NCBI GenBank assembly: GCA_965219085.1
Contig: OZ244720.1
Coordinates: 2,624,001 to 2,688,000 of the forward strand
Direction of reading: 5' to 3'
DNA: 64,000 nt
From: Dehalococcoidia bacterium
GTDB lineage: Bacteria > Chloroflexota > Dehalococcoidia > UBA2979
The notes beneath the pieces are model-generated. The model saw only the letters and a list, made by a program, of their open reading frames with translations. It did not search any database and was not told the origin of the DNA. Both the position numbers and the translations under genes were made by a program. Position 1 is the stretch's first letter, and the number at the start of each line of letters is the position of its first letter. This document shows, in pieces, positions 1 to 18,042 of the stretch.

Positions 1-600
1 GATCTCGGGGACGACCACCATGCCGGCGAAACGCTCGCCACGCTCGGTGCACAACCCGCTCTCGCGGACCCGTCCGGCGGCGAAGCCGGCGGATGCGAGC
101 GCCGTCTGCAGCCCGCGCCCCGGCACGTAACCGAGGCCGAGCCGCCGGGCGGTGTCGAGCCCGACGCCCCGTGAGGTGAGGTATGCCCTCGCCTCGGGAC
201 TGCGCCGCAACTCCCTGGCGTAGTGGCGCGCCGCCGCCGTCACCAGCGCCGGGTCCGGCGGCGGTGCCGCGGCCGGGGAGCGTGGCCGACGGGAGCTTGC
301 GGAGCGGCCGGGGACAGGCGTCGAGCCGTCGAGCCGCCGGATCGCCTCCCGCAGGCTCAGGCCCTCGGTGCGCTGGAGGAAGTCCAGCACGTCGCCGCCC
401 TCGCCGCAGCCGAAGCAGTACCAGCGCTCGGTGTCGGCGTAGACCGTGAAGCTGCCCTCGGCCTCGTTGTGGAAGGGGCAGACGCCCTGGCGGACGCGGC
501 CCCTGCCGTGCAGCCGAACGCCCGACGCCTCGACCACGTCGCCCAGCGGGTGACGCGACTTCAGCGCCGCGATGTCGACGGGCGCATGGGCGGCGACCAT
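1..600 (-). CDS. DnaG-like primase with CHC2 zinc finger (3'-truncated by window edge; not in ORF track)
   Basis: Manual translation from ATG at 600: MVAAHAPVDIAALKSRHPLGDVVEASGVRL...VCPFHNEAEGSFTVYADTERWYCFGCGEGGDVLDF; start overlaps the upstream stop (TGATG). Confidence 0.85.
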   Translation of the reverse strand, partial: MVAAHAPVDIAALKSRHPLGDVVEASGVRLHGRGRVRQGVCPFHNEAEGSFTVYADTERWYCFGCGEGGDVLDFLQRTEGLSLREAIRRLDGSTPVPGRSASSRRPRSPAAAPPPDPALVTAAARHYARELRRSPEARAYLTSRGVGLDTARRLGLGYVPGRGLQTALASAGFAAGRVRESGLCTERGERFAGMVVVPEI

Positions 601-1064
601 CAAGAGCCGCCCTTCGCCAGGGGCCGGAGCCCCCGCAGGCTGCGCCGCGAGACGACCTTGCCGGGCTGCCAGCGCATCCCGAGAACCGCCAGCACCTCCA
701 GCGCTCCGCCGGGGTGCGGCGCGAGCACGGCGGCTCGCCCGGTGGCGGGGCTGTAGACGACCGCCTCGCGCCCCGCGAAGCGCCGCCGTGCGAGGTCGAG
801 CCACTCGGCGTACGCCCAGCGCACGTCCTGCTCCGTGGCCTGCGTCAGGTCCGCGCTGGCGAGGACCCCCGCCGCGCTGTCGAGGTCGCCCTGCTGCCGG
901 AGCCGCCGCGCCTCGTGGACGCTGCGGGCGATGCTCGGTTCGGGCTCCGGGGCCGCTCCGAGGAGCGCCTCGAATACCCTGTCGACCAACTCTTCGAGGC
1001 TGCGCCCGGGGCGGGAGACCGCCTCGGTCGCAGCCGTGTTCATCGTTGCCGTTGCCATCGTCAT
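600..1064 (-). CDS. Hypothetical ICE protein
   Basis: ORF with AAGGAG RBS 7 nt before ATG 1064; translationally coupled to the primase gene. Confidence 0.7.
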   Translation of the reverse strand: MTMATATMNTAATEAVSRPGRSLEELVDRVFEALLGAAPEPEPSIARSVHEARRLRQQGDLDSAAGVLASADLTQATEQDVRWAYAEWLDLARRRFAGREAVVYSPATGRAAVLAPHPGGALEVLAVLGMRWQPGKVVSRRSLRGLRPLAKGGS

Positions 1065-1104
1065 TTCGATGCTCCTTGTGCTGTGGCTCGTGCCGGTGTC
1101 GTGC

Positions 1105-1176
1105 GCCCTCACGGGCATGAAGAGGGGCCGCCTCCGAAGAGACGGCCCCATGGCTGTGTGGATGCCGGGTGAGGGC
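1105..1176 (-). ncRNA. Structured cis-RNA / attenuator-like leader
   Basis: Inner hairpin GGGGCCGUCUC-UUCG-GAGGCGGCCCC (cUUCGg tetraloop) nested in outer helix GCCCUCAC..GGCAU / AUGCC..GUGAGGGC. Confidence 0.5.
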
Positions 1177-1183
1177 CGGGTCG

Positions 1184-1687
1184 TCAGCGGAGAAGCACCC
1201 TCGTGCGGCGGCGGCCGGCGAGCACCCGTGCGACGAGGAGCGTCCCGATGCCGAGGCCGGCCGCGTTGAGCACGGCCAGTTCGCCGCCATGGCCGAACAG
1301 CAGCGGCGCCGCGAGCAGCGCCACCAATCCGACGACCACGGCGGGCTTCCGCCCTTGCCGCTTCGGACGAACCGGGGCAGCCTCGGCCACCGGCTCGTAG
1401 GCCGTCCAGATCGGCAGCCTAAGGACGCCCTCGAGCGCCGTCACAGCGTGGGCGCGCGTGCATCCGCCGGTGTGACAGCGCACGTCGATGCCGTTGCCGT
1501 CGGGCCGCTGCCGGAACGCCAGTCCGTCCGACGCGCCGCCGTGGCAGATGGCGGTGGTCGTCCAGAACCAGCCCCGCTCGAAGCTCACCCGCTGCGGGAT
1601 GAGATTCGAGATCCGGCCGGCGCTCGGTCCTGTGTACTGCTGTGCCACGGCTCGCATCTCCATGGCGTCCCTCTGCTCTGTGTTCAT
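1184..1687 (-). CDS. Hypothetical protein with primase-type Zn-binding motif and two C-terminal hydrophobic helices
   Basis: CH...CHTGGC motif; hydrophobic C-terminus; AAGGAGG RBS. Confidence 0.65.
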   Translation of the reverse strand: MNTEQRDAMEMRAVAQQYTGPSAGRISNLIPQRVSFERGWFWTTTAICHGGASDGLAFRQRPDGNGIDVRCHTGGCTRAHAVTALEGVLRLPIWTAYEPVAEAAPVRPKRQGRKPAVVVGLVALLAAPLLFGHGGELAVLNAAGLGIGTLLVARVLAGRRRTRVLLR

Positions 1688-1770
1688 GTCTCGTGACCTC
1701 CTTCGTCACTGCTGCGTTGCTGGTGACCCGTGCCGGCATCCGTGGCGCGGGTCATGGCTGTGTTGCTGCT

Positions 1771-2252
1771 GGACGCACTCCGCCCACGGTCGGATGCCGG
1801 GACCGGGGAACGGAGTGGCTGGGCCGCGCGTATGCGAAGCGGCCGGCCTGCGAGTCAGTCGCGGGCCGGCACGTCTTCAGCGCGGCGGGCATGGGGAACG
1901 GGCCGAGCGCAGGACGCACTCCGCCCAGGGACTCCGGGGTCGTGGCGCATAACGCACCTCGCCCGCGGTCTCCCGGCGTTCGAGGCGGCGTCGGGGGAGC
2001 AGCGCTCGACCCTTCAGCTGCCTCCCGCTGCGGGAAGGCGGATGTCCCTCACTGGAACGCCGTCGGGAGAGCAGGGCTCGATCCGTCAGGTCGTTCCGGG
2101 TCCGGGATGGACCCTCCAGGTTTCTGTGGCAGGAAACGCTGGAAAAGCCGGAAACTGCTTGGCAGTGTCGCCGAACGCCCACCCCCAACGGAAGGGGTTT
2201 CGGGGCCTTCCGCCGGAATCACTTGCCGTGGTTCGACAGGAGTTCGACAGGA
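1771..2252. repeat. Cluster of direct repeats in ICE non-coding region
   Basis: GGACGCACTCCGCCCA at 1771-1786 and 1912-1927; 29-bp repeat (4 mismatches) at 1989-2017 and 2061-2089; tandem GTTCGACAGGA x2 at 2231-2252. Confidence 0.75.
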
Positions 2253-2277
2253 ATGCGACCACGACCGCAGCGCACGG

Positions 2278-3147
2278 CTACGCCCACCAGATCCCGAGCG
2301 TGAGGAGACGGCGCAGGCGGCGCAGCCACTGCGCCCGGCGGCGCTCGCCGCGGACGCGCTCGAGCGTCCGTTCGCGCCAGCGCAGCTGCGCCCGCCGCGT
2401 CAACCCGTCCCAGCGGTAACTCTGCGGCGGCAGCGCGAGTTCGTGGTTGCCGATGAGCGCGATCTCCAGCTCGCGCAGGCGCTCCCCGTCGCGCAGCCAG
2501 TCCACGCCCCGCCCTGCGGCGGGATGACGTGCGCGTACGGCCCGCCACTCCTCGACGAGCGGCCAGGCCGGGCCGTAGGCGCGCTCGTCGTCCGGCCCGG
2601 CCTCCTCCGTCACGACCGTGGGAGACGCCGTCGGCGGGCGAACGGGAGCGGACGTCGGCCTGACGGCGATGCGGGGCGCGCCCCGGTCCGGCGCGGGCGC
2701 CCCGCCGGAACGCGGGGTCTCGACCGCCGTGAGCTGCTGCTCGCTGTCCGCCAGCCGTTCCCCATGCTCGTGCCGGAGCTGTTCCACCGTGTCCGCCAGC
2801 GCCTGCACGGCGTCCGTGGCGCCGCGCACCTCGCCGGCCGTGCCATCGATGCCGTCCGGAGGAGCCTCGGACCCGGCTCCGCCATCGTCCGACGGGGCCG
2901 GCGTCGCCGTGGGCGGCAGGGCCGCGCCGCGTTCCAGCGCCTTTGTGAGCAGGGCCTCTCGCAGCCGCACCTTGAGCGGGCCCGGTTCGTCGAGGGCGCG
3001 CGCCAGCGTCTTGTAGTTGACCCCCAGCGCATCCGCCGCCCGCATCCGTCCCTGCTCCGCCACGAGCTCGTGCAGGAACGCCCGCAGCCGCCCCTCGTAG
3101 GGCTGTTCCGACTCCTCCGGGGCCTGTTGCCGGCTTGTCTCGTCCAT
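2278..3147 (-). CDS. Hypothetical ICE protein with N-terminal HTH and coiled coil
   Basis: GRMRAADALGVNYKTLARAL HTH-like motif; GGGAGG RBS before ATG 3147. Confidence 0.65.
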   Translation of the reverse strand: MDETSRQQAPEESEQPYEGRLRAFLHELVAEQGRMRAADALGVNYKTLARALDEPGPLKVRLREALLTKALERGAALPPTATPAPSDDGGAGSEAPPDGIDGTAGEVRGATDAVQALADTVEQLRHEHGERLADSEQQLTAVETPRSGGAPAPDRGAPRIAVRPTSAPVRPPTASPTVVTEEAGPDDERAYGPAWPLVEEWRAVRARHPAAGRGVDWLRDGERLRELEIALIGNHELALPPQSYRWDGLTRRAQLRWRERTLERVRGERRRAQWLRRLRRLLTLGIWWA

Positions 3148-3357
3148 CTCACGGCCTCCCGGCACTTCCCTCGGAGGGAACTCTGCCCCCTGCGGCGTGG
3201 AATACGCCCTGACAGCGAAGTTGTTGCTCAGCACGTCCTGTAGGGCCGTTTTCCCTTGGCCCGCCTTGTGTTTCGGCACATTTCCCTCGCTGGGAACCAA
3301 CGTCCTTCTCCGTACACACCCATCACACCCTTCGGCCCGCCCGATCGCCATGTCCTG

Positions 3358-3385
3358 TAGGGGAGGGCGCACACGCCCTCCCCTA
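3358..3385. repeat. Perfect 12-bp inverted repeat (candidate oriT or operator)
   Basis: TAGGGGAGGGCG-caca-CGCCCTCCCCTA between divergent operons; GTCCTGTAGGG also repeated at 3235 and 3352. Confidence 0.6.
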
Positions 3386-3461
3386 TGAGGCATTACATCG
3401 CGGCCCCGATATCCACACACTCGATTGCCGTCACGACCACTCACCTCGAGGAGACGACGGC

Positions 3462-4082
3462 ATGCGACGGCAACCGAGAACCACCACCAATAGAACGAGG
3501 AGACTGCGGGCGCTGGCGGCGGCGCTGCTGCTGGCGGCGCTGGCGGCGATCCCCTCGAGCGGCACCGCCCTCGCCCAGGAGCCGCCCGCGGGCGACGGCA
3601 TCGTGCTCGTCAACGAGGCCGCCGAGGATCTCGTCGAGCGCAAGGACGACGGACGCTTCATCGCCCGTCCCGTCTTCGACCGCGAGGTCCCACTCCTCTA
3701 CTACGGCGTGCGCGAGGGCGACACGGGCGAGTGGGTCACCGTCGTTTTCCGGGTGCGCGACGACGGCGAGGAGCGGCGCGACGGTCACGAGTACTCCTTC
3801 GAGTACCCCTTCGAGAACGGCCAGCCCGAGCTCGACCCGGACCGCCCCTACCTGCTGGTGATGCTCGCGGGCGAGCTGGCGGAGTCGCCACAGCCCTTCT
3901 ACGCCGTCATCCCGCCTCACCAGCCGGGGGGCCTCTGGAACAAGGTCCTCGGAGCGCTCGAACCCGAGCGCTGGGGCAAGGCCGTCGCCCGCTGGGTGAT
4001 CGAGGGCGCGCACGGGACGCTCTGCGGCGTCGTCGAGCGCGCCTCCGGCGCAGACGCCGATACCTGCGAGGCCACCCCGTGA
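3462..4082 (+). CDS. Secreted hypothetical protein, first gene of the transfer operon
   Basis: Signal peptide ending ALA-QEP; GAGGAG RBS; stop overlaps next start. Confidence 0.7.
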   Translation: MRRQPRTTTNRTRRLRALAAALLLAALAAIPSSGTALAQEPPAGDGIVLVNEAAEDLVERKDDGRFIARPVFDREVPLLYYGVREGDTGEWVTVVFRVRDDGEERRDGHEYSFEYPFENGQPELDPDRPYLLVMLAGELAESPQPFYAVIPPHQPGGLWNKVLGALEPERWGKAVARWVIEGAHGTLCGVVERASGADADTCEATP

Positions 4083-5065
4083 GCGACATCTTCACGGGCA
4101 CTCCGCCCGGCCTCACCTATGATCACGAGATCGTCCGCCAGGCGTGGACGGCGGTCTGGATCATCACCTCGGGTGCGCTCGTCGTGATCATCGGCTGGAT
4201 GGGGCTGAGCCTCATCGTCGGAGACCACCTCGGCCGCGCACAGGCGGGCTGGCGCGAGTTGGTCCCGCGCCTCGGGCTCGGGCTCGTGGCTGCCGCCGCC
4301 TCGCTCTGGTGGTGCGCGCTCGTCATCGACGTGGCCGACGCGGTGTCAGGGTTCGTGGCCGCCGAGCTGGGCGTCACCGCCAGCGACATGCTGCGCTCGA
4401 CGCTGCGCACGCTGCTGACCGCGGTGGCGGCGGGCAGCGTGGGCATGGCCCTGGTCCTGGCGCTGCTCTACCTCGTCTACGGCTTCTTCGTGCTCTACCT
4501 CGTGGTGCAGATGGTGCTGCGCCTCGCGCTGATCGACATCCTGCTCGCGCTCGCGCCGATCGCCCTCGGGCTGTGGATCCTCCCGCACACCGCGGGCTGG
4601 GGCCGGCACTGGCTGCGGCTCTTCATGACGACCGTCTTCCAGCAGGCGATCCAGCTCGTCGCGCTGGCGCTGGGCATCTCCTTCCTCAACGAGTTCGCGT
4701 CGATCGGCGCCGGCGAACCCGTACAGGAACTCGTCTGGAAGCTGCTGATGTCGCTCGCCTTCATCTACCTGGCGACGCGCGTGCCCTCGATGCTCGGCAA
4801 CACCGGGACCTTCGACGCCTGGCTGCACACCCTCTACTTCGGCATGTCCCTGCCCGGCTCGATGGTCCGCTCGGCGCGCTCCGTGGGACTGCTCGCGGGC
4901 GGCGGTGCGGCGGGCGGCCCGGTGGGCGCGGCGGTTGCCGCCGGGGCAGCAGGCGGCGTGGCCTCGGCGGCCACCTCGGGCGTGCGCTCGGCGGCCGATA
5001 TGGCAACCCCCTCCTCGGGCGGCGGCGCCGCCGGTGGCGGCGCCCCCCGGAGCAGCAGCGAGTAA
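4079..5065 (+). CDS. VirB6/TrbL-like polytopic T4SS membrane protein
   Basis: Multiple TM helices, LRLALIDILLALAPIALGLWILP..WGRHWLR motif, Gly/Ala-rich tail; GTG start coupled to upstream TGA. Confidence 0.75.
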   Translation: MSDIFTGTPPGLTYDHEIVRQAWTAVWIITSGALVVIIGWMGLSLIVGDHLGRAQAGWRELVPRLGLGLVAAAASLWWCALVIDVADAVSGFVAAELGVTASDMLRSTLRTLLTAVAAGSVGMALVLALLYLVYGFFVLYLVVQMVLRLALIDILLALAPIALGLWILPHTAGWGRHWLRLFMTTVFQQAIQLVALALGISFLNEFASIGAGEPVQELVWKLLMSLAFIYLATRVPSMLGNTGTFDAWLHTLYFGMSLPGSMVRSARSVGLLAGGGAAGGPVGAAVAAGAAGGVASAATSGVRSAADMATPSSGGGAAGGGAPRSSSE

Positions 5066-5209: not shown

Positions 5210-5497
5210 GTGGAAGACCTGACTCAGACCATCTCCAACCTGGTGGGCATCCTGCTGGGCGTCGTCGGCGCGATCGGCGTCGGCTTCTTCATCTACGGGT
5301 CCTACCTCTACCTCACCGCCTCGGGCGCACCGCACCAGATGGAGCGCGGCAAGAGCGCGATGATGACCGCTTTGGCCGGCATCGTGCTGGCGATGGTGGC
5401 CTTCGGCGTCGTCGAGCTGGTGATGGACGCCGTCGTCAACCCCGTCGTGGATGTCGACGTCCCCGAGCCCACGGGCGCGGGTTCGTCGGAAGGATAG
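5210..5497 (+). CDS. TrbC/VirB2-like pilin
   Basis: Two hydrophobic helices around YLTASGAPHQMERGKS. Confidence 0.75.
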   Translation: MEDLTQTISNLVGILLGVVGAIGVGFFIYGSYLYLTASGAPHQMERGKSAMMTALAGIVLAMVAFGVVELVMDAVVNPVVDVDVPEPTGAGSSEG

Positions 5498-5506
5498 GGG
5501 GACGTC

Positions 5507-7240
5507 ATGCGAGAGCACGAGGTTCCAACCCACGTGCAGGCCGAGGACCGCGTCCTGCTGTGGTTCACCTTCCCCCAGATCGTGGCGATGACGGCAGTCT
5601 GCGCCCTCGCCTACGGCGTCTACCGCTACGCCCCGCTCGGTCCGTCCGAGGTACGCATGGCCGCGGCCGTGCTCTTCGGACTGGCCGGACTGGCGGTCGT
5701 CGCGGGGCGGATCGGAGGCAGGCGGCTGCCGCTGGTGGCGGCCGACCTGCTGCGGTTCGGACTGGGCGCGCGGCGCTACGCCGGGCCTCCAGCCCAGTTG
5801 GTGCGGAGCGAACCACCCGCAGCCGCGCAGCCAGCATCGAGCGGCGCCAGGCCACGGCGGCTGCTGGCGCGTCGCATACGGCGCGTCGTGCGCCGCCGCT
5901 CAAGGAAGCGGAAGGAGGGTGAGCGCCGCAACGGGCGGATGCCCTTTCGTCCGCACCGCATCTTCGGCAAGCGCCGGCGGCAGGGCGGCGAGGAGCCCGC
6001 TGAGGCGCAACGGCCGGCGACGCAGGAGCGCGGCGGGCGGCGTCTCGGACGCTGGCGCGTGCTCCCGGCGGTCGCCGTCCTGGCGGTCGCCCTCGCCGCC
6101 ACGCCGCTGCTCCCGGCGCTGGCCCAGGAGCCGGGCGGGGAGGGCTGGTTTTCGGAGGAGATCGAGTTCCAGCCTCCGCCGCTGGTCCCCGGACGACGGC
6201 TCTTCGTCGAGGGGCTCACGGTCGGCGGCGAACAGGCAGCGGTCACGCTGCGGGCCGCCACGGACCTGGACCTGACGGTGCGGGCCTACGGCGGTCCGGA
6301 CGGACGGTCGCTCCGCTTCTTCGGGACGGCCGCCCTCGAGCAGGGCGAGCGCAGCGAGTACGACCTGCCGCTGCACGGCCCCTCGCCCTCGCTCGTCTTC
6401 TCCTGGGAGGACGAGCTGGGCCAGGCCGGGGCCGTCAGCCTCGGTGGCGAGCGGCTCCCGTGGCCGCTGCCCGCGGTGGCGGGCGAGCTGTGCGTCCTGC
6501 GCGTCGTCTCGCTCGGCTGGAGCGCGGGCGCCGTCGAGGGGGCGATCAGCTCGGAGTGCGTGAGCACCACCGAGGAAGCGGTCGTTCTCCAGACGGTCGC
6601 CGGGCACGCCGACGTGACCGCGACGGCCCTGCTGGAAGGCGAGGTCGTTGCCGTCACCGGGACCATCACGGTCGCCGGAGACGGCCCTGCGACGAGCGTC
6701 ACGTTTGTCGCCGGCGGCGAGACCCGCTTCCGGCTCCCGGTCGCGGCGGGCGAGGCCGTCCACGCCCTCGCCATCGAGGCGGACCTGGTGGCGTCCCTCA
6801 GCGTCGCCCTGCCGCCGCTCGTGGAGCTCACCCACCACCCGCGGCGCGTCGAGCAACTCACGGAGACGGCGGAGGTGGGCATCCCGGCGTTCGGCGACAC
6901 CGTGACGGAGACGTTCACGGTCCCCAACGAGGACGGCACCGTCACTGAGCACACCGTGACGGCCAGCTGCCATGTCCCCGCGTCGACCGTCCGCCAGGAC
7001 GTCGTCTTCAGCGTCGTCCACCCCGAACGCGTCGAGGCCGAGGTGATGGCGCGGCTACCGCTCGCACGCAGCCGGGATGAGTCGCTTGCCCTGGCGCTCA
7101 GCGTCGGGGCCGACGACCCCTACGTGGCGCTGGCCGTACCCGAGCCCGAGCCGGAGCCCGATCCCGTGACGCAAACACCCGCCGAAGAGGACGAGCTGAG
7201 CGACTGGTTCGAGCAGCTCGGCTGGGAGTGGGTCTGGTGA
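5507..7240 (+). CDS. PrgI/VirB3-like N-terminus fused to a large extracellular beta-rich domain
   Basis: HEVPTHVQAEDRVLLWFTFPQ PrgI-like start with 2 TMs; internal signal-like segment; position upstream of VirB4. Confidence 0.65.
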   Translation: MREHEVPTHVQAEDRVLLWFTFPQIVAMTAVCALAYGVYRYAPLGPSEVRMAAAVLFGLAGLAVVAGRIGGRRLPLVAADLLRFGLGARRYAGPPAQLVRSEPPAAAQPASSGARPRRLLARRIRRVVRRRSRKRKEGERRNGRMPFRPHRIFGKRRRQGGEEPAEAQRPATQERGGRRLGRWRVLPAVAVLAVALAATPLLPALAQEPGGEGWFSEEIEFQPPPLVPGRRLFVEGLTVGGEQAAVTLRAATDLDLTVRAYGGPDGRSLRFFGTAALEQGERSEYDLPLHGPSPSLVFSWEDELGQAGAVSLGGERLPWPLPAVAGELCVLRVVSLGWSAGAVEGAISSECVSTTEEAVVLQTVAGHADVTATALLEGEVVAVTGTITVAGDGPATSVTFVAGGETRFRLPVAAGEAVHALAIEADLVASLSVALPPLVELTHHPRRVEQLTETAEVGIPAFGDTVTETFTVPNEDGTVTEHTVTASCHVPASTVRQDVVFSVVHPERVEAEVMARLPLARSRDESLALALSVGADDPYVALAVPEPEPEPDPVTQTPAEEDELSDWFEQLGWEWVW

Positions 7241-7554
7241 GGCGGCTCACGACCGCCCTGCTACTCGCCGGGGTCGCGCTGGTCACGACCGGCGCGGCCC
7301 CGGCCGAGGAGCGGGCCATGCTCGACGCCTTCGATGAGGCGCTTACCGCGCTGGCCTACGCCGCCGCCGGGGTCTGCGTCTTCGCGATCGCCTGGGCGGG
7401 CGTCCTGCTCATGGCCGACGGTGCCGACGAGCGTGGCGGCGGGCGCGCAAAGAGCGCCGTCTTCCTGGCCGTGGCCGGCCTCGCGCTCGTGCTGTCGGCC
7501 AAGGGCGTGGCTGCCCTGCTGCGCGCAGGCATCGTCCCCATCCCCGTCCCCTGA
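7237..7554 (+). CDS. Second TrbC/VirB2-like pilin
   Basis: Signal peptide plus two hydrophobic helices flanking DGADERGGGRAKS. Confidence 0.65.
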   Translation: MRRLTTALLLAGVALVTTGAAPAEERAMLDAFDEALTALAYAAAGVCVFAIAWAGVLLMADGADERGGGRAKSAVFLAVAGLALVLSAKGVAALLRAGIVPIPVP

Positions 7555-7573
7555 CACCCAGGAGCAGATCCCG

Positions 7574-9932: not shown

Positions 9933-12539
9933 ATGCGATTCAATCCATTCAAGACCATCCCCAATCGCGAGCCCGTGCTGCTGGCGGTGACGCCGCCGCG
10001 CACGGGCGAGCGCACGCTGCTCGGCGTCGAGAACCTGCTCGGCTCGATCGCCGTGCCCGAGCCCTTTTCGCTCGAACTCGCGGGCGGCGCCGACGGCGTC
10101 ACCCTGCTGGCGCGCTGCCTCGGCGAGCAGGTCGTGCGCGGCCAGATCGCCGCCCACTATCCCCAGGCACGCATCCACCAGCTCCAGCCCGAAGAGGATC
10201 CGCTCCGGCTCCGCGGGGGCGAGCAGGCCTGGAGCATGACCCTGCGCCCGAGCGGACCCGAGTACCTGCCCCTGCGCCTCTTCCGCGACGACGACCTGCT
10301 CGACGCGGGCTCCGACCCGATCCTCGCCCTGCTCGGCGCGCTCTCCGACCTCGAGGAGGACGAGCGCGTCGTCGCGCGGCTGCGGCTGCGCTCGCTCGGT
10401 CCCGACTGGTCGCGGCAGCACCAGGTCAGGGCGCACGAGCGGCCCCAGCCGGAGCGGACCGACTCCTACCAGATCAGCGAGTCGCGCCGCCACCGCGTCG
10501 AGATCGCGGGGGTGGCCGTCCTCGGTGCCGCCGTCGCCGGCGCTGCCCAGGGCTACCGCTGGTGGCAGGCGGGCGAGCAGTGGAAGACGGTCGCGCTCGG
10601 GGCGGGCATCGCCCTCACGCTCGGTGTGGCCGGCTGGGCCTGGGCGCGCTGGCAGCGCGCCCGCAACCGCGTCGTCGACCCCCTCCTGGTCAAGGAGAAG
10701 GTCTCGCGCATCGCCTTCGAGGCGGAGATCGAGGCCGTCGCCGTGCTGCCCGCCGGCGGCACCGAGGAGCGCGCGCGCGACCTGCTCGAGCCGGTGGCGG
10801 CCGCCTACCGCCACTACGACCACCCCGCGGGCGCGCGCCTGCAGGCGGGCGAGGTGCAGCCGCTGATCCCGGACCCGGCGGCGCTGCATCCCTCCCCGCC
10901 CGGCCTCTTCCGGGGGCGCAGCGTGCTCGGCGTGCGCGAGGCGGCGGCGCTCTGGCATCCGCCCGGCGCCGGGGACGAGACGCCGCTCGTCTCCCGTTCC
11001 GGGGCGAAGGTGCTGCTCCCCACGGCGCGCAGCGTCAGGGGCGGGGCGCTCGTCGGCGAGACCACGGCGGGGAGCCCCCGCGAGATCCATTTCCCCGACG
11101 ACCTGCTGCGCCGCCATCACCTCTACGTGGCGCGCACGCGCATGGGCAAGTCGACGCTCATGCAGCACCTCGTTACCCACAGGCTGCGGGAGAAGGCGGC
11201 AGGGGTCGGCGGCGACGCGATCGTCGTCGTCGACCCCCACGCCGACCTCGTCGCCGGCATCCTCGAGCACGTCCCCGAGTCCCTGGTTGGCTCCGTGCGC
11301 CTCGTCGACCTCGCGGGCAGCGGCGGCTACCCCGGCATCAACCTGCTCGACACGCACGTCTTCGCCGACCGCGACCGCACCGCCGACTCGGTCGTGCGCG
11401 TCGCGCGGGGGCTCTGGGAGCAGTGGGGGCCGCGCATGCAGTCGATCCTCGAGCAGACGGTGAAGACGCTGCACGAAGCTAACGCCCACCCCGACACGGC
11501 GGCCGAGGAGCAGAGCACCATCCTCGATGGGCTGCGCCTCCTGTCCGACGACGGCTTCCGCAGCCACGTCCTGGAGCGGGTCTCCGACCCCTTCCTGCTC
11601 GACTGGTGGGCGCGAGACTTCGGTGGCTGGCGGCGCGAGTACCGCGCCGAGGCGCTGGCGCCGGTCCAGACGCGCCTCTCCTACTACGCCTCCTCGAAGC
11701 GGGCGCGAGCGATCCTCGGCCAGGCGCGGTCCACCATCGACCTGCGCCGCACCATCCTCGACGGGGGCGTGCTGCTCGTCTCCACCGCGCAGGGCACCGC
11801 CGGGCGCGACGTCGCCGCGCTCGTGGGCGCGTCGATCCTCAACCTCGTCGATGCCGTCATCCGCGAGCAGGGCGAGCTGCCCCCGGAGCGCAGGCGCGGC
11901 GCGCTCGTCGTCGTCGACGAGATGCAGTCGATGCCGGGCGTCGACTACGAGTCGATGCTCTCGGAGCTGGGCAAGTTCGGGGCCAGCTTCGTGCTCGCCA
12001 CGCAGAGCCTCGCCAAGCTCGCCGATCTCTCACCGACGATGCGCGACACGCTGCTCGCCAACGTGGGCTGTCTCGCCATCTTCCAGGTGGCCGGCTCCGA
12101 CGCGCGCCAGCTCGTCTGGGAGCTCGACCGCGACCGCGTCTCCGAGGAGGATGTCGTCTCCCTGCCCGCGCACCACTGCTACGTGCGCGCGACCGTGGGA
12201 ACGCAGCGCATGCCCGCCTTCTCCATGGAAGTGCGCAAGCCCGACGGAGGCGACCCGGGGCGGGCCTCCCGCATCCGCGCGGACGCGGCGTCCTACCTGC
12301 TGACGGAGGAGGAGATCGCCGCCCGCCAGGCGGAGGGCCGCCGTCGCGTGGAGCAGTGGCGCGAGGCCGGCGAGGCGCTTCGCAACGGCGATGGTTCCGG
12401 GCCGGACGCGGACGCTGCTCCGGGGGAGGGCTCCGATCCGGGCACGGGCGACACCTCCGGGGAAGCAGAGCGCGGGAAGCAGTCGCGCAGCAAGCACTTC
12501 CAGCCGCCCGGCCGCAACTCCGGGAAGGCTGAGCAGTGA
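9933..12539 (+). CDS. virD4: VirD4/TraD-like coupling protein
   Basis: 2 TMs, RHHLYVARTRMGKST, VVDPHADL, VVVDEMQ, LSELGKFGASFVLATQSLAKL. Confidence 0.85.
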   Translation: MRFNPFKTIPNREPVLLAVTPPRTGERTLLGVENLLGSIAVPEPFSLELAGGADGVTLLARCLGEQVVRGQIAAHYPQARIHQLQPEEDPLRLRGGEQAWSMTLRPSGPEYLPLRLFRDDDLLDAGSDPILALLGALSDLEEDERVVARLRLRSLGPDWSRQHQVRAHERPQPERTDSYQISESRRHRVEIAGVAVLGAAVAGAAQGYRWWQAGEQWKTVALGAGIALTLGVAGWAWARWQRARNRVVDPLLVKEKVSRIAFEAEIEAVAVLPAGGTEERARDLLEPVAAAYRHYDHPAGARLQAGEVQPLIPDPAALHPSPPGLFRGRSVLGVREAAALWHPPGAGDETPLVSRSGAKVLLPTARSVRGGALVGETTAGSPREIHFPDDLLRRHHLYVARTRMGKSTLMQHLVTHRLREKAAGVGGDAIVVVDPHADLVAGILEHVPESLVGSVRLVDLAGSGGYPGINLLDTHVFADRDRTADSVVRVARGLWEQWGPRMQSILEQTVKTLHEANAHPDTAAEEQSTILDGLRLLSDDGFRSHVLERVSDPFLLDWWARDFGGWRREYRAEALAPVQTRLSYYASSKRARAILGQARSTIDLRRTILDGGVLLVSTAQGTAGRDVAALVGASILNLVDAVIREQGELPPERRRGALVVVDEMQSMPGVDYESMLSELGKFGASFVLATQSLAKLADLSPTMRDTLLANVGCLAIFQVAGSDARQLVWELDRDRVSEEDVVSLPAHHCYVRATVGTQRMPAFSMEVRKPDGGDPGRASRIRADAASYLLTEEEIAARQAEGRRRVEQWREAGEALRNGDGSGPDADAAPGEGSDPGTGDTSGEAERGKQSRSKHFQPPGRNSGKAEQ

Positions 12540-14271: not shown

Positions 14272-14290
14272 AGAACTGGCGTTCTATGAT
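14272..14290 (+). promoter_or_regulatory. LexA (SOS) box abutting a TATGAT -10 element
   Basis: AGAAC-TGGC-GTTCT matches the GAAC-N4-GTTC box of Gram-positives and Dehalococcoides; TATGAT at 14285-14290. Confidence 0.75.
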
Positions 14291-14322
14291 GGATCGGGCG
14301 GGGCCGGCCGAGGAGCGCAGAC

Positions 14323-14691
14323 ATGACCGTCGACCACGGCTACCGCTGGAAGGAGTTCGGCGCCCGCATCCGCGCGGCCCGCGAGCGCGCCGGCTTCACG
14401 CAGAAGCGCCTCGGCGAGCTCGTCGGCGTGCGCGCGCACACCGTCTGGTGCTGGGAGGCGGGGCGGATGAAGCCCAACCACGCGAACCTCGCGGAAATCG
14501 CCTACCAGTGCGCGACGAGCGTGGCGCTGCTTGAGGGACGCGACGTGGTCGAGGCGGAGTTGCTGAGAGAAGCCGAAGTCTTGTTCCGCGACGCCGTCGC
14601 CGGCCTCCCCATGGAGGACATCGAGTCGATCCGCAACTACATCCGCTTCGTCAAGTCGGAGCGGCGCAGGCAACGCCGCGCCGGGAGCTGA
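14323..14691 (+). CDS. XRE-family HTH regulator
   Basis: FGARIRAARERAGFTQKRLGELVGV..HTVWCWEAGRMKP; GAGGAG RBS. Confidence 0.9.
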   Translation: MTVDHGYRWKEFGARIRAARERAGFTQKRLGELVGVRAHTVWCWEAGRMKPNHANLAEIAYQCATSVALLEGRDVVEAELLREAEVLFRDAVAGLPMEDIESIRNYIRFVKSERRRQRRAGS

Positions 14692-14722
14692 ACCGGGCGC
14701 AGCGGCGCGCGAGGGGCTGCCG

Positions 14723-15013
14723 CTACGCCGCCCGCCCGTCAGCCGCGGGCGGCGATTCCTCCTCCGAAGCCGATCCGGCGATGGCATGTCCCGCCGCCGT
14801 GAGGGTCACCGCGCGCGCCAGGCGGGGCGCACGCACGATCAGGCCCGCGCGCTCGCACGCGTCCAGCCAGTGCGCCACGTTGGAGGTGGAGGACAGCCCG
14901 GTCGCCGTCCTCAACTCGCGCACGCTCGGCGCATAGCCGTGCCTGGCCCGGTAGCGGGCGATCGCCCCGACCACCGCGCGCATCCGCTCCCGTCGCCGCC
15001 TCGAGGCGCTCAC
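14723..15013 (-). CDS. LexA DNA-binding-domain-only protein
   Basis: IARYRARHGYAPSVRELRTATGLSSTSNVAHWLDACERAGLIVRAPRLARAV; no C-terminal peptidase; GTGA overlap with upstream gene. Confidence 0.8.
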   Translation of the reverse strand: MSASRRRRERMRAVVGAIARYRARHGYAPSVRELRTATGLSSTSNVAHWLDACERAGLIVRAPRLARAVTLTAAGHAIAGSASEEESPPAADGRAA

Positions 15014-15393
15014 AGGGCGGCGCCCTTCGCGAGCGGCAGTGCCGCTCCCTGCCCGAACTCGCCGGGCGCGCCGCCGCGTACTGCCAGCTCCCACGAGCGG
15101 ACCAGACTCTCCGCTGGCGCCCCGGCCTCGTCGACGAGTAGCGCCGCGCCTGGCAGCAGGCAGGGCAGCAGGTTCCGTTCGAGGGCGAAGACGACCAGCG
15201 CGTAGAGATGGCCGGAATCGGGCGTCGTCCCGTTCCTCCAGCGCCGCAGCATGCGCGTGTCGACGCGCAGCGCGCGCGCCAGTCCCCGCCAGCTCAGCCC
15301 GGCCTCCCGCCGCAGGCGGTCGAGGCGCTCGGGGAAGTCCGGCGGAAAGCGTGACGGCTCAACGTGGTAGACGTGCTGCTGGCGGCGTCCCAT
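15010..15393 (-). CDS. XRE-like HTH protein
   Basis: FPERLDRLRREAGLSWRGLARALRVDTRMLRRWRNGTTP. Confidence 0.8.
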   Translation of the reverse strand: MGRRQQHVYHVEPSRFPPDFPERLDRLRREAGLSWRGLARALRVDTRMLRRWRNGTTPDSGHLYALVVFALERNLLPCLLPGAALLVDEAGAPAESLVRSWELAVRGGAPGEFGQGAALPLAKGAAL

Positions 15394-15686
15394 CAGCGCC
15401 TCCGCTCCGGGCGCACGACGATCAGCTCCTCGCCCAGCAGTGCGCCCAGGCCCCCGGGCACCCGCGTCGCGAGCCGCACCAGCGAGAGCATCGCCCCGCC
15501 GCCGGGCGAGGCGCCCTGCCGCCAGCGCCAGAGCTGGCGGGGGTCCACGCCCAGGCAGACCGCCATCCGCTCCCAGGGCAGCCCGGTCAGTTCCTTGATC
15601 GCCACGAGCCGCGCCGCGAAGTCCTCGGGCAGGAGCGCCACGCCGGGCAGGAAGGCCGTCTCGGGGGCCGTCGGCGCCCTACTCAT
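15393..15686 (-). CDS. XRE-like HTH protein, paralogue of neighbour
   Basis: FAARLVAIKELTGLPWERMAVCLGVDPRQLWRWRQGASP. Confidence 0.75.
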   Translation of the reverse strand: MSRAPTAPETAFLPGVALLPEDFAARLVAIKELTGLPWERMAVCLGVDPRQLWRWRQGASPGGGAMLSLVRLATRVPGGLGALLGEELIVVRPERRR

Positions 15687-15942
15687 CGGGCTCATCCTCG
15701 TCGGACTCATCGGGGTGCACCACGTAGAAGAGATCGTCGAAGCGCGCGTGCAGCACGCGCAGCATGCTCTCGCGCAGCCCGGCGGAGGCGCGCCGGCGCC
15801 CGTTCAGCACCAGCGAGATGTAGCCCGAGGAGCGGCCGACCGCTCGCGCGAAGCCGTTCTGCGTCAGGTTGAGGCGCACCATTCGCTCCCAGACGGCCTC
15901 GGCCCTGACCTCGACCGTGGGGCGGGCGACTCTACTCGGCAT
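15679..15942 (-). CDS. Cro/XRE-like HTH protein
   Basis: LNLTQNGFARAVGRSSGYISLVLNGRR; GGGGAGGG RBS. Confidence 0.8.
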   Translation of the reverse strand: MPSRVARPTVEVRAEAVWERMVRLNLTQNGFARAVGRSSGYISLVLNGRRRASAGLRESMLRVLHARFDDLFYVVHPDESDEDEPDE

Positions 15943-16138
15943 GCTCGCCCTCCCCGGCGGCCGCATCGCGGTCCGCTTCGTCGGACGGAAACGCGCCGTT
16001 GGGCCCCGTGCCGCCGCGGGCGGTCGAGGCGAGGTGGGCGCGCACGATCAGCCGCGCGAGGGCGCGCAGGCCGCGCAGCCGCTGCTCGTCCTGCTCCTTG
16101 GTGAGTTGCCGGGGGGTCGTCGTCCGGGGGGTTCGCAT
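15932..16138 (-). CDS. Small hypothetical protein
   Basis: LTKEQDEQRLRGLRALARLIVRAHL helix; first gene of the coupled leftward operon. Confidence 0.55.
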   Translation of the reverse strand: MRTPRTTTPRQLTKEQDEQRLRGLRALARLIVRAHLASTARGGTGPNGAFPSDEADRDAAAGEGEHAE

Positions 16139-16180
16139 CGTGGCATCCGCATGGCTGGTCTGGGGGAGTACCCCTGTGTA

Positions 16181-16194
16181 AGTACGTACGTTCT
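16181..16194 (-). promoter_or_regulatory. LexA-box-like site upstream of the HTH operon
   Basis: Minus strand AGAAC-GTAC-GTACT (one mismatch to GAAC-N4-GTTC). Confidence 0.6.
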
Positions 16195-16294
16195 GTTATC
16201 GTGACAATAGCAGCGAGGCAGGCGCGCCGACAACGAGATCCGAGCCTAATTCGGCCCGGATCTCCTAAATCGCTTGCTGCAATGTGACAGAAGG

Positions 16295-16308
16295 CGAACA
16301 ACTGTACG
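16295..16308 (+). promoter_or_regulatory. LexA-box-like site upstream of the integrase
   Basis: CGAAC-AACT-GTACG; TACCAT -10-like at 16320-16325. Confidence 0.55.
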
Positions 16309-16368
16309 CCTCGGCGCGCTACCATGTGACCAGCGAACACAGACTCCCCGCCTGTCAGGAAGCGACCG

Positions 16369-18042
16369 ATGCCCGACCAACAGCCCGATCTCAAGCCCGC
16401 CGCCCTCTACGCCCGCGTCTCCAGCGACCGCCAGGACGTCGACCTCTCCGTCTCCGCCCAGCTGCGCGCGCTCCGCGACTTCGCCGAGAAGAACAATTAC
16501 CTTGTCGTCCGCGAGTATGTCGACGAGGCCGAGAGCGGGCGCGTCGCCGACCGCCCGCAGTTCCGGCAGATGCTCGATGCGGCCGGCAGCGACGACGCGC
16601 CCTTCGAGGAGATCCTCGTCTGGAAGTTCTCGCGCTTCACCCGCAAGCGCGAGCACGCCGTCGCCTTCAAGTCGATGCTGCGCCGCCGCGGCATCCGCGT
16701 CGTCTCCATCACCGAGCACGCCGACGACTCCCCCACCGGCAAGCTCATGGAGGCGATCATCGAGAGCGTCGACGAGTTCTATTCGGAGAACCTGGCGCAG
16801 GAGGTCATGCGCGGTCTGCGCGAGTCGGCTTCACGCGGCTTCTGGGTCGCCCCGCGCGCGCCTTACGGCTACCGCAGGGTCCAGGTGCAGGACGGCCCTA
16901 GGACGCGACCGAAGCTGGAGTTGAATCCGCCCGCCGACGGCATGGTCCGCCGCATCTTCGAGATGGCTCTGCAGGACCGGAGCGTCCTCGAGATCAGCAA
17001 GACGTTCAACGCCGAGGGCATCCCCAGCCCGGCAGGCAAGCGCTGGAACAAGACGACTATCCACCAGATGCTCGCCAACGAGACCTATACGGGAACCTTG
17101 CTCTGGGGCGTCACGGCCAAAGACGGGCTCCCACCCGTGCGTGTCGAGGATGCGTTCCCCGCCATCGTCTCCCGGAAGGAGTTCCAGGAGGTCGCGGGCC
17201 TGCTGCGTGCGAAGGCGCCGGCGCAGGTACATCCGCGTCGCGCCGGGAGCCCATATCTGCTGAGCGGGCTCGTGAAGTGCCGGCGCTGCCGCCGAGCGCT
17301 CACGGCAGCCGAGGCGAAGAGCGGCAAGTACACCTACTACGTCTGCCAGTCGCTGTTGAAGCGAGGCAGCGGTACCTGCGAGACCCCGCGGCTCAACGCG
17401 CAGCACTTCGAGCGGCTGATCATCGAGCAGATTCGGGAGCACATCCTCACCGAGTCCAACATCCGCGACCTCGTGCGGCTCGTTGACGAGGAGATGGACG
17501 GCGTAGCGCGCGAGGAGCGTGCGAAACTCGAGACCACCGAGGCCGAGCTGGCCGAGGTGCGCAGCAAGATGGACCGGCTGTGGCACGCCGTCGAGACCTC
17601 CGATCTGGAGGTCAACGACATCTTGCCCCGCCTGAGGCAGCACCAGGAGCGCCAGGAGCGCCTCGAGACGGCGGCGGCGGATGCGCGCAGGGCGCTCTCG
17701 GAGCGCCGCGTGGCGCTGGACAGCGTCGAGACCATCACCGCCTTCGCTCGAGAGATGAGCGAGTTCCTGCGGACCAGTAAACTCACCGAGTCGAAGACGT
17801 TCATCCGCTCCTTTGTGAAGGAGATCGCCGTCAAGCCCGGGACGGCGACGATCCGGTACACCATCCCGACGCCGCCGGACAGCCCCATCGGTGGGGGAGA
17901 TGCTGCGGAGATCGAGTTGCCCGAGGCAGTTCGCAGTACAGTCAGCTATGGCTGCCGGGGGAGGAATCGAACCTCCATCAAGGGATCCAAAGTCCCCTGT
18001 GCTACCGTTGCACCACCCGGCACCGCTGCGGATCCAGTCTAG
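16369..18042 (+). CDS. Large serine recombinase (integrase)
   Basis: ALYARVSSDRQ catalytic motif, WKFSRFTR, PYGY recombinase domain, YLLSGLVKCRRC...YYVC Zn ribbon, coiled coil. Confidence 0.95.
   Translation: MPDQQPDLKPAALYARVSSDRQDVDLSVSAQLRALRDFAEKNNYLVVREYVDEAESGRVADRPQFRQMLDAAGSDDAPFEEILVWKFSRFTRKREHAVAFKSMLRRRGIRVVSITEHADDSPTGKLMEAIIESVDEFYSENLAQEVMRGLRESASRGFWVAPRAPYGYRRVQVQDGPRTRPKLELNPPADGMVRRIFEMALQDRSVLEISKTFNAEGIPSPAGKRWNKTTIHQMLANETYTGTLLWGVTAKDGLPPVRVEDAFPAIVSRKEFQEVAGLLRAKAPAQVHPRRAGSPYLLSGLVKCRRCRRALTAAEAKSGKYTYYVCQSLLKRGSGTCETPRLNAQHFERLIIEQIREHILTESNIRDLVRLVDEEMDGVAREERAKLETTEAELAEVRSKMDRLWHAVETSDLEVNDILPRLRQHQERQERLETAAADARRALSERRVALDSVETITAFAREMSEFLRTSKLTESKTFIRSFVKEIAVKPGTATIRYTIPTPPDSPIGGGDAAEIELPEAVRSTVSYGCRGRNRTSIKGSKVPCATVAPPGTAADPV
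17949..18022 (-). tRNA. tRNA-Gln: tRNA-Gln(TTG), ICE integration target
   Basis: TGCCGGGTGGTGCAACGGTAGCACAGGGGACTTTGGATCCCTTGATGGAGGTTCGATTCCTCCCCCGGCAGCCA folds into a cloverleaf with encoded CCA. Confidence 0.95.

Follow-up and report, generated by a model that had tools for sequence, protein, structure and literature searches.

Does the run of secretion and DNA-processing genes that ends at a transfer RNA (tRNA) gene for glutamine in this genome belong to a mobile element, and is that element complete enough to move by conjugation? We analyzed positions 1–18042 of a window of 64,000 nucleotides, genome positions 2,624,001–2,688,000 of a single contig of 3,305,961 bp; coordinates are those of the window unless marked as genome positions, negative values lying to its left. 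The host is a Dehalococcoidia bacterium (Chloroflexota), whose nearest relatives are metagenome-assembled genomes (MAGs) titled Tepidiformaceae. An earlier reading of the letters alone (the sequence-only reading) had proposed an integrative and conjugative element (ICE) of a Chloroflexota-type family, inserted at tRNA-Gln by a serine recombinase and equipped with a stripped-down type IV secretion system (T4SS). We found that the analyzed stretch is only the right end of an element of ~77 kb, here called Y (genome 2,564.95–2,641.95 kb), and consider it probable that Y is a structurally intact ICE that works through the mechanism outlined below. Judged by its genes, the ICE is apparently complete and its modules are of known types: a large serine recombinase, a T4SS like those of mating-pair-formation class FATA (MPF_FATA), a VirD4-type coupling protein (T4CP) and a MOBC relaxase. 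Distinctive are the pilins and the PrgI-like protein with an immunoglobulin (Ig)-like stalk within a monoderm-type T4SS, the lack of a recognizable hydrolase and a MOBC protein with a duplicated module, together with an attachment (att) core inside the integrase reading frame, many tRNA targets and tandem accretion that leaves an attP-like junction.

The GC content is ~70–77% across the region, so long spurious open reading frames (ORFs) are common; real frames were chosen by plots of GC at third codon positions (GC3) and by conservation. ORFs were scanned with Pfam and NCBIfam profiles and tRNAs were called with ARAGORN and Rfam. At least 588 related loci were found; every count out of 80 refers to the best 80 among them, in which gene presence was judged within 10-kb flanks. 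These scans bore out the proposed gene list and tRNA placement, including a co-oriented run of genes for a secreted protein, a VirB6-like protein, a pilin, a PrgI fusion, a second pilin, VirB4, a VirD4-like protein and a replication-relaxation protein (Table 1). A secreted protein does exist, at 3462–4082, but the long plus-strand ORF at 1642–3243 that had been taken for its gene is an Arg/Pro/Gly-rich junk frame opposite the minus-strand gene 2278–3444, as GC3 and conservation show.

VirB4, the T4CP and the relaxase candidate all score above the Pfam gathering thresholds and are linked in 79–80 of the 80 loci. Both Y and a second element of the same genome, Z, have uninterrupted ORFs for every core gene, at 66–100% identity. 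The first gene of the T4SS operon encodes a 206-aa protein for which we found no PDB profile match below E 0.5 and a single stray Pfam match among 25 members; an ESM Atlas search gave no match to the exact sequence, no model and no usable feature. The GTG start of the VirB6-like gene, at 4079, overlaps the preceding stop, and its product has at least five hydrophobic segments. With the NCBIfam pilin-like family Mbov_0395, pilin 1 scores 38 bits (E 1e-9), under the cut-off of 40. The frames of the second pilin and of the VirB4 ORF run into each other, and variability at third codon positions across the 80 loci tracks the former up to ~7540 and the latter beyond; because of this switch, we regard the second pilin frame as genuine and place the VirB4 start near 7574.

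We also analyzed the 577-aa fusion protein using an AlphaFold2 model, in which an N-terminal PrgI/VirB3-like transmembrane hairpin is followed by a disordered basic linker, a third transmembrane helix and ~300 aa of tandem Ig-like beta-sandwiches, the last predicted to be extracellular. The mean pLDDT was 66, with block means mostly at 84–93 for residues 230–470 and 500–530 and dips to 60–76 between. The best Foldseek matches (E 3e-4) were beta-sandwiches of transglutaminases, alpha-2-macroglobulins and adhesins, with low TM-scores, and neither the model nor the fold search gave any sign of a VirB8 or lytic fold. The name PrgI fusion, given by the sequence-only reading, fits the predicted hairpin, but similarity to the PrgI profile reaches only E 0.18. 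"Stripped-down" holds for this T4SS in a relative sense, as five conserved proteins of unknown fold are possible stand-ins that could fill missing roles.

The gene for the relaxase candidate directly follows and overlaps the T4CP gene in 79 of the 80 loci. By its profile, the Replic_Relax family (PF13814), the protein is a member of MOBC; the earlier proposal of a non-HUH relaxase was right in that respect and is refined to this known family by a score above cut-off, and no HUH relaxase family was detected among the 85 + 31 scanned ORFs. CONJscan uses PF13814 as its MobC relaxase family (PMC5357655), and Steczkiewicz et al. (PMC3424549) placed the family in the PD-(D/E)XK fold. According to a 2025 review (PMC12857230), MOBC relaxases are carried by conjugative plasmids and ICEs in both Gram-positive and Gram-negative bacteria, and a covalent DNA intermediate has not been seen for them; TraX of pAD1 is described there as resembling restriction endonucleases in its active site, as carrying a winged helix at its N terminus and as binding five direct repeats 70–120 bp from nic. 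A library search with the Y protein yielded 1215 clusters at E <= 0.001. An alignment of 36 Replic_Relax sequences, 29–73% identical to the query, showed invariant R61, R100, D132, G149, R160, D339, G368, H380, P426, D427, E444, E446, Y462, Y465 and W529, with R448 nearly so. The AlphaFold2 model (pLDDT 93.7, pTM 0.92) consists of two successive winged-helix plus alpha/beta modules, with P426-D427 and E444-x-E446 on neighboring strands of the second. In fold searches with the whole model, the two winged helices dominated the ranking (Z ~10), and weak matches were to the PD-(D/E)XK nucleases HamA, Can2, FokI, XisH and Cdn1; a PD-(D/E)XK nuclease core in this predicted structure is plausible. 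A second Replic_Relax gene of Y, at genome 2,599,314–2,601,323 (window -24,686 to -22,677), encodes 669 aa with 35% identity to the first and a PF13814 score of 35.9 bits.

The large serine recombinase proposed at tRNA-Gln was confirmed as an intact gene, recY, with all three Pfam domains of its kind. The tRNA gene, read in antisense, supplies its last 30 codons, and the TG at 17953–17954 is the probable 2-bp crossover. As the recombinase ORF contains the att core, the protein tail varies with the insertion context, ending ...STVSYGCRGRNRTSIKGSKVPCATVAPPGTAADPV at tRNA-Gln(ttg), ...STVQYGWGPGIRTPTY at tRNA-Gln(ctg) and ...STVSFGWPKKTVLRTFELSVAL at a P-P' junction. The genome holds two paralogues of recY, namely recZ (89% identity) and the frameshifted recX (87% and 84% in two frames). 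Remnants of the recombinase family also occur at genome 837,192–838,738 (three frames, 64–74% identity) and 146,126–146,447 (a 100-aa C-terminal fragment). In two metagenome runs, contigs link position 18015 back to 17949 through 15 other letters, which suggests that some related organisms have two tandem copies of the tRNA.

An att-region search of the genome identified five sites that share the P or P' arm and the core. At the right end of Y (2,641.95 kb), the recombinase ORF ends ...GTTCGCAGTACAGTCAGCTATGGCTG and is followed by the 3' part of the tRNA, CCGGGGGAGGAATCGAACC..., and at the left end (2,564.95 kb) the sequence reads GTTCGCAGTACAGTCAGCTTTGGCTGGCCAAAGAAGACTGTACTGCGAAC, that is, a P arm closing the frameshifted recX and then the inverted arm copy P'. 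The left end of a neighboring element, X, at 2,538.03 kb consists of unrelated DNA (...GGAGGCTGGCTGG) and then a P' arm. Element Z begins at 566.58 kb with unrelated DNA and P' and ends at 746.34 kb with the P arm of recZ and then tRNA-Gln(ctg). All five sites have only TGGCTG(G) in common. At the X|Y junction, the 15-nt arms are exact inverted repeats, with inner TTTGGC/GCCAAA around the central TG. The sequence-only reading had predicted a distal att in the form of a tRNA-Gln 3' duplicate; there is no second tRNA copy, only the 6–7-bp core and a P' half-site. A 43-bp match 77 kb to the left, retrieved with a 160-bp att query, proved to be the 3' end of the sister recombinase gene and not a tRNA. 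The far end carries no duplicate because att sites of large serine recombinases consist of half-sites and a short core.

On its left, Y ends in a P' half-site that adjoins the end of the frameshifted sister recombinase gene; Y thus stands in tandem with X, and the array at tRNA-Gln(ttg) consists of X (27 kb, genome 2,538,030–2,564,950; window -85,970 to -59,050) followed by Y (77 kb). X retains a T4CP gene without an equivalent of residues 73–442, Replic_Relax in two pieces, a homologue of gene 2278–3444 and recX. The X|Y junction could have arisen from attP(Y) x attR(X) recombination or from homologous exchange within the recombinase 3' ends, which are 84–89% identical; both leave the same product. 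In Dehalococcoides, serine-recombinase islands are likewise found in tandem, at the tmRNA gene. The ends of Z (genome 566,580–746,422) lie ~180 kb apart, and it holds a full conjugation module at 727–741 kb as well as at least four giant adhesin paralogues (601, 650, 669–678 and 687 kb); Z may itself be composite. It repeats the conserved half of Y, with the ResIII, DUF6094, RadC, Rad52 and primase genes and all T4SS genes at 66–100% identity.

We searched 30 relatives with the tRNA and its right flank and read eight tRNA-Gln loci of the same genus. Five had no P arm (G018, G013, G015, G004 and G012), one carried a homologous recombinase at tRNA-Gln (G014) and two had P-arm-like sequence with no similarity to the last 950 nt of recY (G008 and G003). 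In G018, for which flank synteny was established, the DNA beside tRNA-Gln matches positions 2,533,415–2,534,810 of this genome; because this is the far-left flank of the array, ~107 kb of insert here corresponds to ~110 bp in G018. Between that flank and X, ~3.2 kb (genome 2,534,810–2,538,030; window -89,190 to -85,970) have no counterpart beside the tRNA-Gln of G018 and could be an older remnant or strain-specific DNA. In G004, which has no P arm at the tRNA, a 61-nt stretch ~1.15 kb from tRNA-Gln is 98% identical to the P'-arm region of Z and looks like the scar of a deleted element.

The element family is abundant and restricted mainly to Dehalococcoidia. Of 598 pattern matches in species-representative genomes, 588 encode a relative, which makes at least 588 related loci; the best 80 of them, often several per genome, all come from MAGs titled Dehalococcoidia, Tepidiformaceae or Chloroflexota, in support of the Chloroflexota-type ICE family that had been proposed. 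VirB4 relatives at 82–96% identity are numerous, the few named ones being Chloroflexi or Chloroflexota, and those at 94–96% in other assemblies suggest a recent spread of the lineage. A recombinase match was present in 53 of the 80 loci (37 at 56–88% identity and 16 at 25–29%), the other 27 having none within the flank. The end of the recombinase gene and the 3' end of a tRNA gene overlap at 11 loci (Ile-gat four, Val-gac three, Ala-ggc two, Ala-tgc one, Met one); related recombinases thus target at least six tRNA species (two Gln, Ile, Val, two Ala, Met). When the 577-aa protein was used as a probe, at least 9 of 18 other genomes of the genus matched, with up to six matches in one genome, as did at least 10 of 98 family genomes and at least 5 of 400 across the phylum, including some labeled only "same phylum"; these counts are lower bounds from a stricter first look.

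We then ranked VirB4 against described conjugation classes. The best NCBIfam profile was conju_CD1110 (235 bits, cut-off 325), followed by VirB4_plasma of the Mycoplasma ICE (154), TraC-F (129.5) and VirB4_CagE (91), and the only PDB sequence match was 4AG5, the Thermoanaerobacter VirB4. Among 72,556 plasmids, 1177 records matched and none exceeded 60% identity; the main genera were Bacillus, Enterococcus, Staphylococcus, Lactococcus and Clostridium, plus haloarchaea. The best plasmid matches were Streptomyces and Embleya at 33–38%, a Candidatus Chlorohelix plasmid reached 31%, and the hosts of all 40 best and of 57 of 60 spread matches were Bacillota, Actinomycetota, Chloroflexota or Archaea. 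An IQ-TREE phylogeny (LG+C20) of 23 sequences, comprising nine Dehalococcoidia (Y and Z among them), 13 named plasmid references and one MPF_F TraC outgroup, united the Dehalococcoidia on a long stem (100/100). Their sister relationship to two Streptomycetaceae plasmids was weak (ultrafast bootstrap 79, SH-aLRT 37). They stood apart from the CD1110 clade (pTEF2, Clostridium, Cutibacterium and others; 100/100) and from a pGO1/B. thuringiensis clade (97/97). The element's clade lies among monoderm/archaeal (MPF_FATA-like) systems and away from the MPF_F outgroup, in a tree that has weak backbone support and was built without MPF_FA, T, I, G, B or C references and without CONJscan profiles. VirB4 phylogeny thus supports the idea of a separate clade, but one that falls within a broad monoderm/archaeal radiation.

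Searching all six frames of the whole genome for four hydrolase families, the only ones searched, we found no NlpC_P60, no CHAP, one SLT (2.06 Mb) and two M23 (1.41 and 1.46 Mb), none of them in X, Y or Z. Neither an HUH relaxase nor a cell-wall hydrolase had been visible in this part to the sequence-only reading, and their lack extends to the whole element as far as the ORF scans and this search reach. We considered whether a wall-less host might account for the missing hydrolase and rejected the idea, given that mraY and three transpeptidase (penicillin-binding protein) genes of peptidoglycan synthesis score above cut-off and murG just under. Because the VirB4 clade is separate and the canonical hydrolase was not found further left, VirB4 does not sit in a described class accompanied by all its canonical components.

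The genes left of the T4SS operon include a primase operon, as the sequence-only reading had it, with a DnaG-like primase on the minus strand at the left edge of the window (Zn_ribbon_DnaG). The coding frame of the primase shifts at ~590–600 by GC3, and its count in the 80 loci is limited by flank length. The operon continues leftward on the minus strand with Rad52/22, two single-stranded DNA-binding proteins (SSB), RadC, an unknown gene, a DUF6094 methyltransferase and a ResIII helicase, functions typical of establishment or leading regions. Between this operon and the T4SS operon, the repeat region at 1688–2277 contains four 22-nt direct copies, two 53-nt copies, a tandem 11-mer and inverted repeats. 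It is 89% identical to Z over 540 bp, against 31% for the adjoining gene 2278–3444, and is partly kept in 60 of the 80 loci; an Rfam scan gave no match at E <= 0.1 in it, the tRNA being the only match. An origin of transfer (oriT) usually lies between the transfer operon and ssb/radC/methylase/primase-type genes, a layout that the position of this region fits. The region is a candidate oriT and/or regulatory region, and the protein of gene 2278–3444 a candidate specificity, regulatory or relaxosome accessory factor. At the other end of the analyzed stretch, the reported helix-turn-helix (HTH) cluster is present but lies mostly on the minus strand (LexA_DNA_bind, HTH_3, HTH_23 and HTH_31 by Pfam); its genes are candidate regulators and/or a recombination directionality factor.

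Table 1. Features of the analyzed stretch; loci counts are out of 80
Feature	Position	Strand	Evidence and remarks
DnaG-like primase, 5' part	1..590, on to genome 2,623,560	-	Zn_ribbon_DnaG E 5e-20, Toprim_2, DNAG_N in full ORF; DnaG Zn-ribbon seen in minus-strand window ORF 1-1290; 45 loci
Conserved protein, 183 aa	600..1151	-	Strong GC3; no Pfam/NCBIfam above cut-off; 88% in Z; 58 loci
Conserved protein, 167 aa	1184..1687	-	GC3; 91% in Z; 45 loci; two C-terminal hydrophobic segments, residues 116-155
Non-coding repeat region, 590 bp	1688..2277		No coding signal by GC3; between establishment and T4SS operons
Variable protein, 388 aa, HTH-like stretch	2278..3444	-	Minus frame kept at 31-36% in Z and X; 74 loci, median 34% identity; no Pfam family
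Secreted/anchored protein, 206 aa, unknown fold	3462..4082	+	N-terminal signal-like hydrophobic segment; 78 loci; first T4SS-operon gene
VirB6/TrbL-like polytopic membrane protein	4079..5065	+	PF04610 TrbL E 6e-8, 33.1 bits (cut-off 25.9); 78 loci
VirB2-like T4SS pilin 1	5210..5497	+	PF18895 T4SS_pilin E 2e-12; 80 loci
PrgI-like fusion, 577 aa	5507..7240	+	PrgI E 0.18, non-significant; 80 loci
Second small pilin-like (VirB2/TrbC-like) protein, two transmembrane segments	7228..7554	+	T4SS_pilin E 5e-4, TrbC E 1e-3, both below cut-off
VirB4 ATPase	~7574..9874	+	TraG P-loop/AAA_10/TraC_F_IV in ORF 7334-9874; 80 loci
VirD4-type coupling protein (T4CP)	9933..12539	+	TrwB_AAD_bind E 4e-6, 26.3 bits (cut-off 20.5); 80 loci; 78% identity in Z
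MOBC-family (Replic_Relax) relaxase candidate, 536 aa	12536..14146	+	PF13814 34.6 bits (cut-off 25.3), residues 295-480; 79 loci
HTH_31/XRE-type repressor-like protein	14323..14691	+	PF13560 E 1e-8; RstR-like below cut-off; 12 loci
Cluster of small DNA-binding proteins and one small ORF	14723..16138	-	Pfam; three members in 62-66 loci
LexA_DNA_bind protein	14723..15094	-	Pfam
HTH_3 protein	15010..15393	-	Pfam
HTH_23 protein	15393..15710	-	Pfam
HTH_31 protein	15679..15966	-	Pfam
Small ORF	15932..16138	-	No family match
Large serine recombinase (recY), 557 aa	16369..18042	+	Resolvase E 1e-31, Recombinase E 7e-19, Zn_ribbon_recom E 5e-12; N-terminal YARVSSDRQ motif
attR	17929..17973		P half-site 17929-17943; core TGGCTG 17949-17954; B' half-site = 3' part of tRNA
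tRNA-Gln(ttg), integration target	17949..18022	-	ARAGORN; Rfam tRNA 67 bits; 3' end faces element

Left of the window, Y encodes a surface protein of 4513 aa that combines an S8 subtilase domain with repeats of the cadherin, fn3 and Big_9 types; its Z homologue is 84% identical over residues 1717–4513. A separate fn3 protein is encoded there as well. The left part of Y also encodes a 1900-aa DUF4011/AAA_11/AAA_12/MTES_1575 helicase-nuclease. A lower-GC part (60–69%; genome 2,566,000–2,592,000, window -58,000 to -32,000) carries DUF1156/methylase-like, SNF2 helicase, 987-aa unknown, uracil-DNA glycosylase (UDG)-like and DACNG-DACNH-DAC genes; the DACNG-DACNH-DAC, SNF2, DUF1156/methylase and UDG-like genes form a defense-like cargo. 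Another large serine recombinase, which has a paralogue of 90% identity at genome 358,435–360,225, is encoded in this part too, and the part may be a nested or accreted element. A prophage was considered and rejected, no capsid, terminase or tail family being present among the scanned ORFs. To the right of the element, the minus strand has four further tRNA genes (Cys, Leu, Trp and Gly), at 24941–25299 and 31595–31669.

We propose the following mechanism for Y. For integration, the serine recombinase joined the tRNA-Gln(ttg) gene, at its 3' end, to an attP contained in the 3' end of the recombinase gene itself, with a probable crossover at the TG of the TGGCTG core; the last tRNA bases come from the element. 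Y would probably leave only together with X, as a composite of ~104 kb. After excision, the MOBC-type PD-(D/E)XK relaxase would nick an oriT presumed to lie in 1688–2277, and the VirD4-type T4CP would hand the DNA to the monoderm-type T4SS. The latter would be built from VirB4, VirB6, the PrgI-like protein with its Ig-like stalk, two VirB2-like pilins and the conserved secreted protein. Cell contact is probably mediated by the 4513-aa subtilase/cadherin/fn3 surface protein that is kept in Z.

Several observations weigh against an intact, self-transmissible Y. Similarity of the 577-aa protein to PrgI is non-significant (E 0.18), and sequence searches, including those with the candidate protein of 3462–4082, found no recognizable VirB8, an NTF2-fold protein recognizable only by fold. 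Nor does the element encode a peptidoglycan hydrolase of the four families (NlpC/P60, CHAP, SLT and M23), so the T4SS, with both of these missing, may be incomplete or host-dependent. Fold matches of the relaxase nuclease domain are weak (Foldseek E >= 0.011; Z 8.7), the candidate oriT was called solely from position, repeats and conservation, and the second Replic_Relax gene, which has no counterpart in Z, finds no place in the proposed mechanism. Moreover, the left end of Y is attP-like and not attL; because of this, Y should be unable to excise alone under the usual attL x attR rule. The last point underlies the view that Y is a stranded genomic island, one that looks intact but became immobile by itself when tandem insertion swapped attL for an attP-like junction and its partner X decayed. 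The junction at 2,564.95 kb is indeed P arm, core and P' arm; recX is frameshifted, and the T4CP gene of X has no equivalent of residues 73–442. In four runs of one study, which contain 50–75% of the sampled words in short contigs of a mixed community, the matches listed show neither a joint nor a loose end at the att core and hence no excision signal. Yet recY is intact and could act on attL(X) and attR(Y), releasing the composite, all core genes of Y are uninterrupted, and VirB4 at 94–96% identity in other assemblies argues for recent movement. We therefore regard a stranded island as unlikely.

The relaxase assignment invites a different doubt, namely that the Replic_Relax protein is a regulator or replication factor and the true relaxase is unrecognized, is the second Replic_Relax paralogue or acts in trans. 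The protein has two winged-helix domains, and its family was labeled a predicted transcriptional regulator in the text of PMC3424549. Fold matches of its C-terminal domain are weak: nuclease-type hits to HamA, Can2, FokI, XisH and PfoI reach Foldseek E 0.011–0.06, and the PD-(D/E)XK protein Cdn1 aligns over 139 residues (residues 280–527) at Z 8.7. MOBC relaxases as described in PMC12857230 also come without a demonstrated covalent DNA intermediate. Against this, the gene follows and overlaps the T4CP gene in 79 of the 80 loci and keeps the same order in a Streptomycetaceae plasmid, the PD...ExE-type acidic set is invariant, CONJscan counts PF13814 as MobC (PMC5357655), and no other relaxase family occurs in the 85 + 31 scanned ORFs, which makes a regulator an improbable reading. 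It is very hard to sustain, in turn, that the T4SS is non-conjugative and rides on an integrative island while serving an end such as contact between cells, the delivery of proteins or the uptake of DNA, as has been suggested for Patescibacteria. VirB2-like pilins, a giant adhesin and the lack of a hydrolase of the four families would suit such a role, and Patescibacteria have MPF_FATA-derived T4SSs that are mostly without relaxases in the account of PMC12102498. However, the T4CP gene is present in all 80 VirB4 loci and the MOBC gene in 79, integrase and ssb/primase establishment genes are linked to the system, and copies occupy different tRNA genes in different genomes.

We thus favor a structurally intact ICE. 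A more far-reaching reading, which we hold to be rather unlikely, takes its family for a separate monoderm conjugation lineage that is sister to actinomycete PrgI-VirB4-T4CP-MOBC plasmids and possibly near the stock of the Patescibacteria T4SS, with a VirB2-type pilus and an Ig-like stalk passing through peptidoglycan without a dedicated hydrolase, and with a self-regulating integrase. If it were true, the position of attP inside the integrase ORF would mean that integration and excision swap the last 10–30 residues of the protein, which could set its stability or directionality.

In full-text literature searches for Chloroflexota, Dehalococcoidia or Tepidiforma, supplementary tables not covered, we found no description of such elements. 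Conjugation in Chloroflexota is hardly described, yet this family comprises at least 588 loci, with up to six copies per genome, and is probably a main route by which genes, those for defense systems and giant adhesins among them, flow within an environmental lineage that is widespread. The family offers material for the questions of how MOBC relaxases without a known covalent DNA intermediate hand DNA over to a T4SS, how a monoderm T4SS without a recognizable hydrolase crosses the wall, and how related large serine integrases are retargeted between tRNA genes. The integrases and their paired att sites could also become genome-engineering tools.

The nearest named relative of the Y VirB4, at 33–38% identity over the C-terminal two thirds, is encoded by plasmid unnamed2 of Embleya sp. 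NBC_00896 (NZ_CP108778), which shares with Y the order of PrgI family protein (PrgI-like in Y), VirB4, T4SS coupling protein and replication-relaxation protein. Unlike Y, this module sits on a linear plasmid, whereas Y is integrated by a serine recombinase; its relaxase gene is directly followed by one for an NlpC/P60 hydrolase, no pilins are annotated in it, and its relaxase has 331 aa, compared to 536 aa with a duplicated module in Y. The MPF_FATA prototypes pCF10/pTEF2 and pGO1 resemble Y in their monoderm-type T4SS with PrgI (in Y, PrgI-like), VirB4 and VirB6-like genes, and CD1110, the best NCBIfam profile of the Y VirB4 (235 bits, cut-off 325), is assigned to pTEF2 as well by the Prokaryotic Genome Annotation Pipeline. 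They differ in having a hydrolase next to VirB4 (right after it in the Bacillota and Actinomycetota plasmid references), MOBP or MOBQ relaxases and a VirB4 of a separate clade. Patescibacteria, placed as the sister phylum of Chloroflexota in PMC12102498, have T4SSs described there as derived from MPF_FATA, with VirB2-like pilins by PF04956/PF18895 and MOBC as the commonest relaxase when one is present. By the same description, and in contrast to Y, these systems are mostly chromosomal, relaxase-less and thought to be non-conjugative.

Among MOBC proteins, TraX of pAD1 and MobC of CloDF13 are likened to that of Y by family profile and by their descriptions in PMC5357655 and PMC12857230; the features seen in Y are the winged helices, an invariant acidic set and a repeat-rich candidate oriT. 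The Y protein has two winged-helix plus alpha/beta modules, whereas TraX is described with an N-terminal winged helix (PMC12857230). The trio of VirD4 T4CP, MOBC relaxase and serine integrase, which X retains, also defines the likeness to the streptococcal IME_Class_8 of Coluzzi et al. 2017 (PMC5357655); as described there, IME_Class_8 elements are mobilizable, without a T4SS and found in Bacillota, whereas Y has its own full T4SS. Integration of serine-recombinase elements at tRNA genes was called rare in PMC3218068, which cites two cases comparable to Y, mycobacterial actinomycete ICEs (AICEs) at tRNA-Leu and phage phiRSM1 at tRNA-Ser, both entering the 3' end of the tRNA gene. Those AICEs use FtsK-type transfer and phiRSM1 is a phage, whereas the family of Y combines a T4SS with at least six tRNA target species and an att core inside the recombinase ORF.

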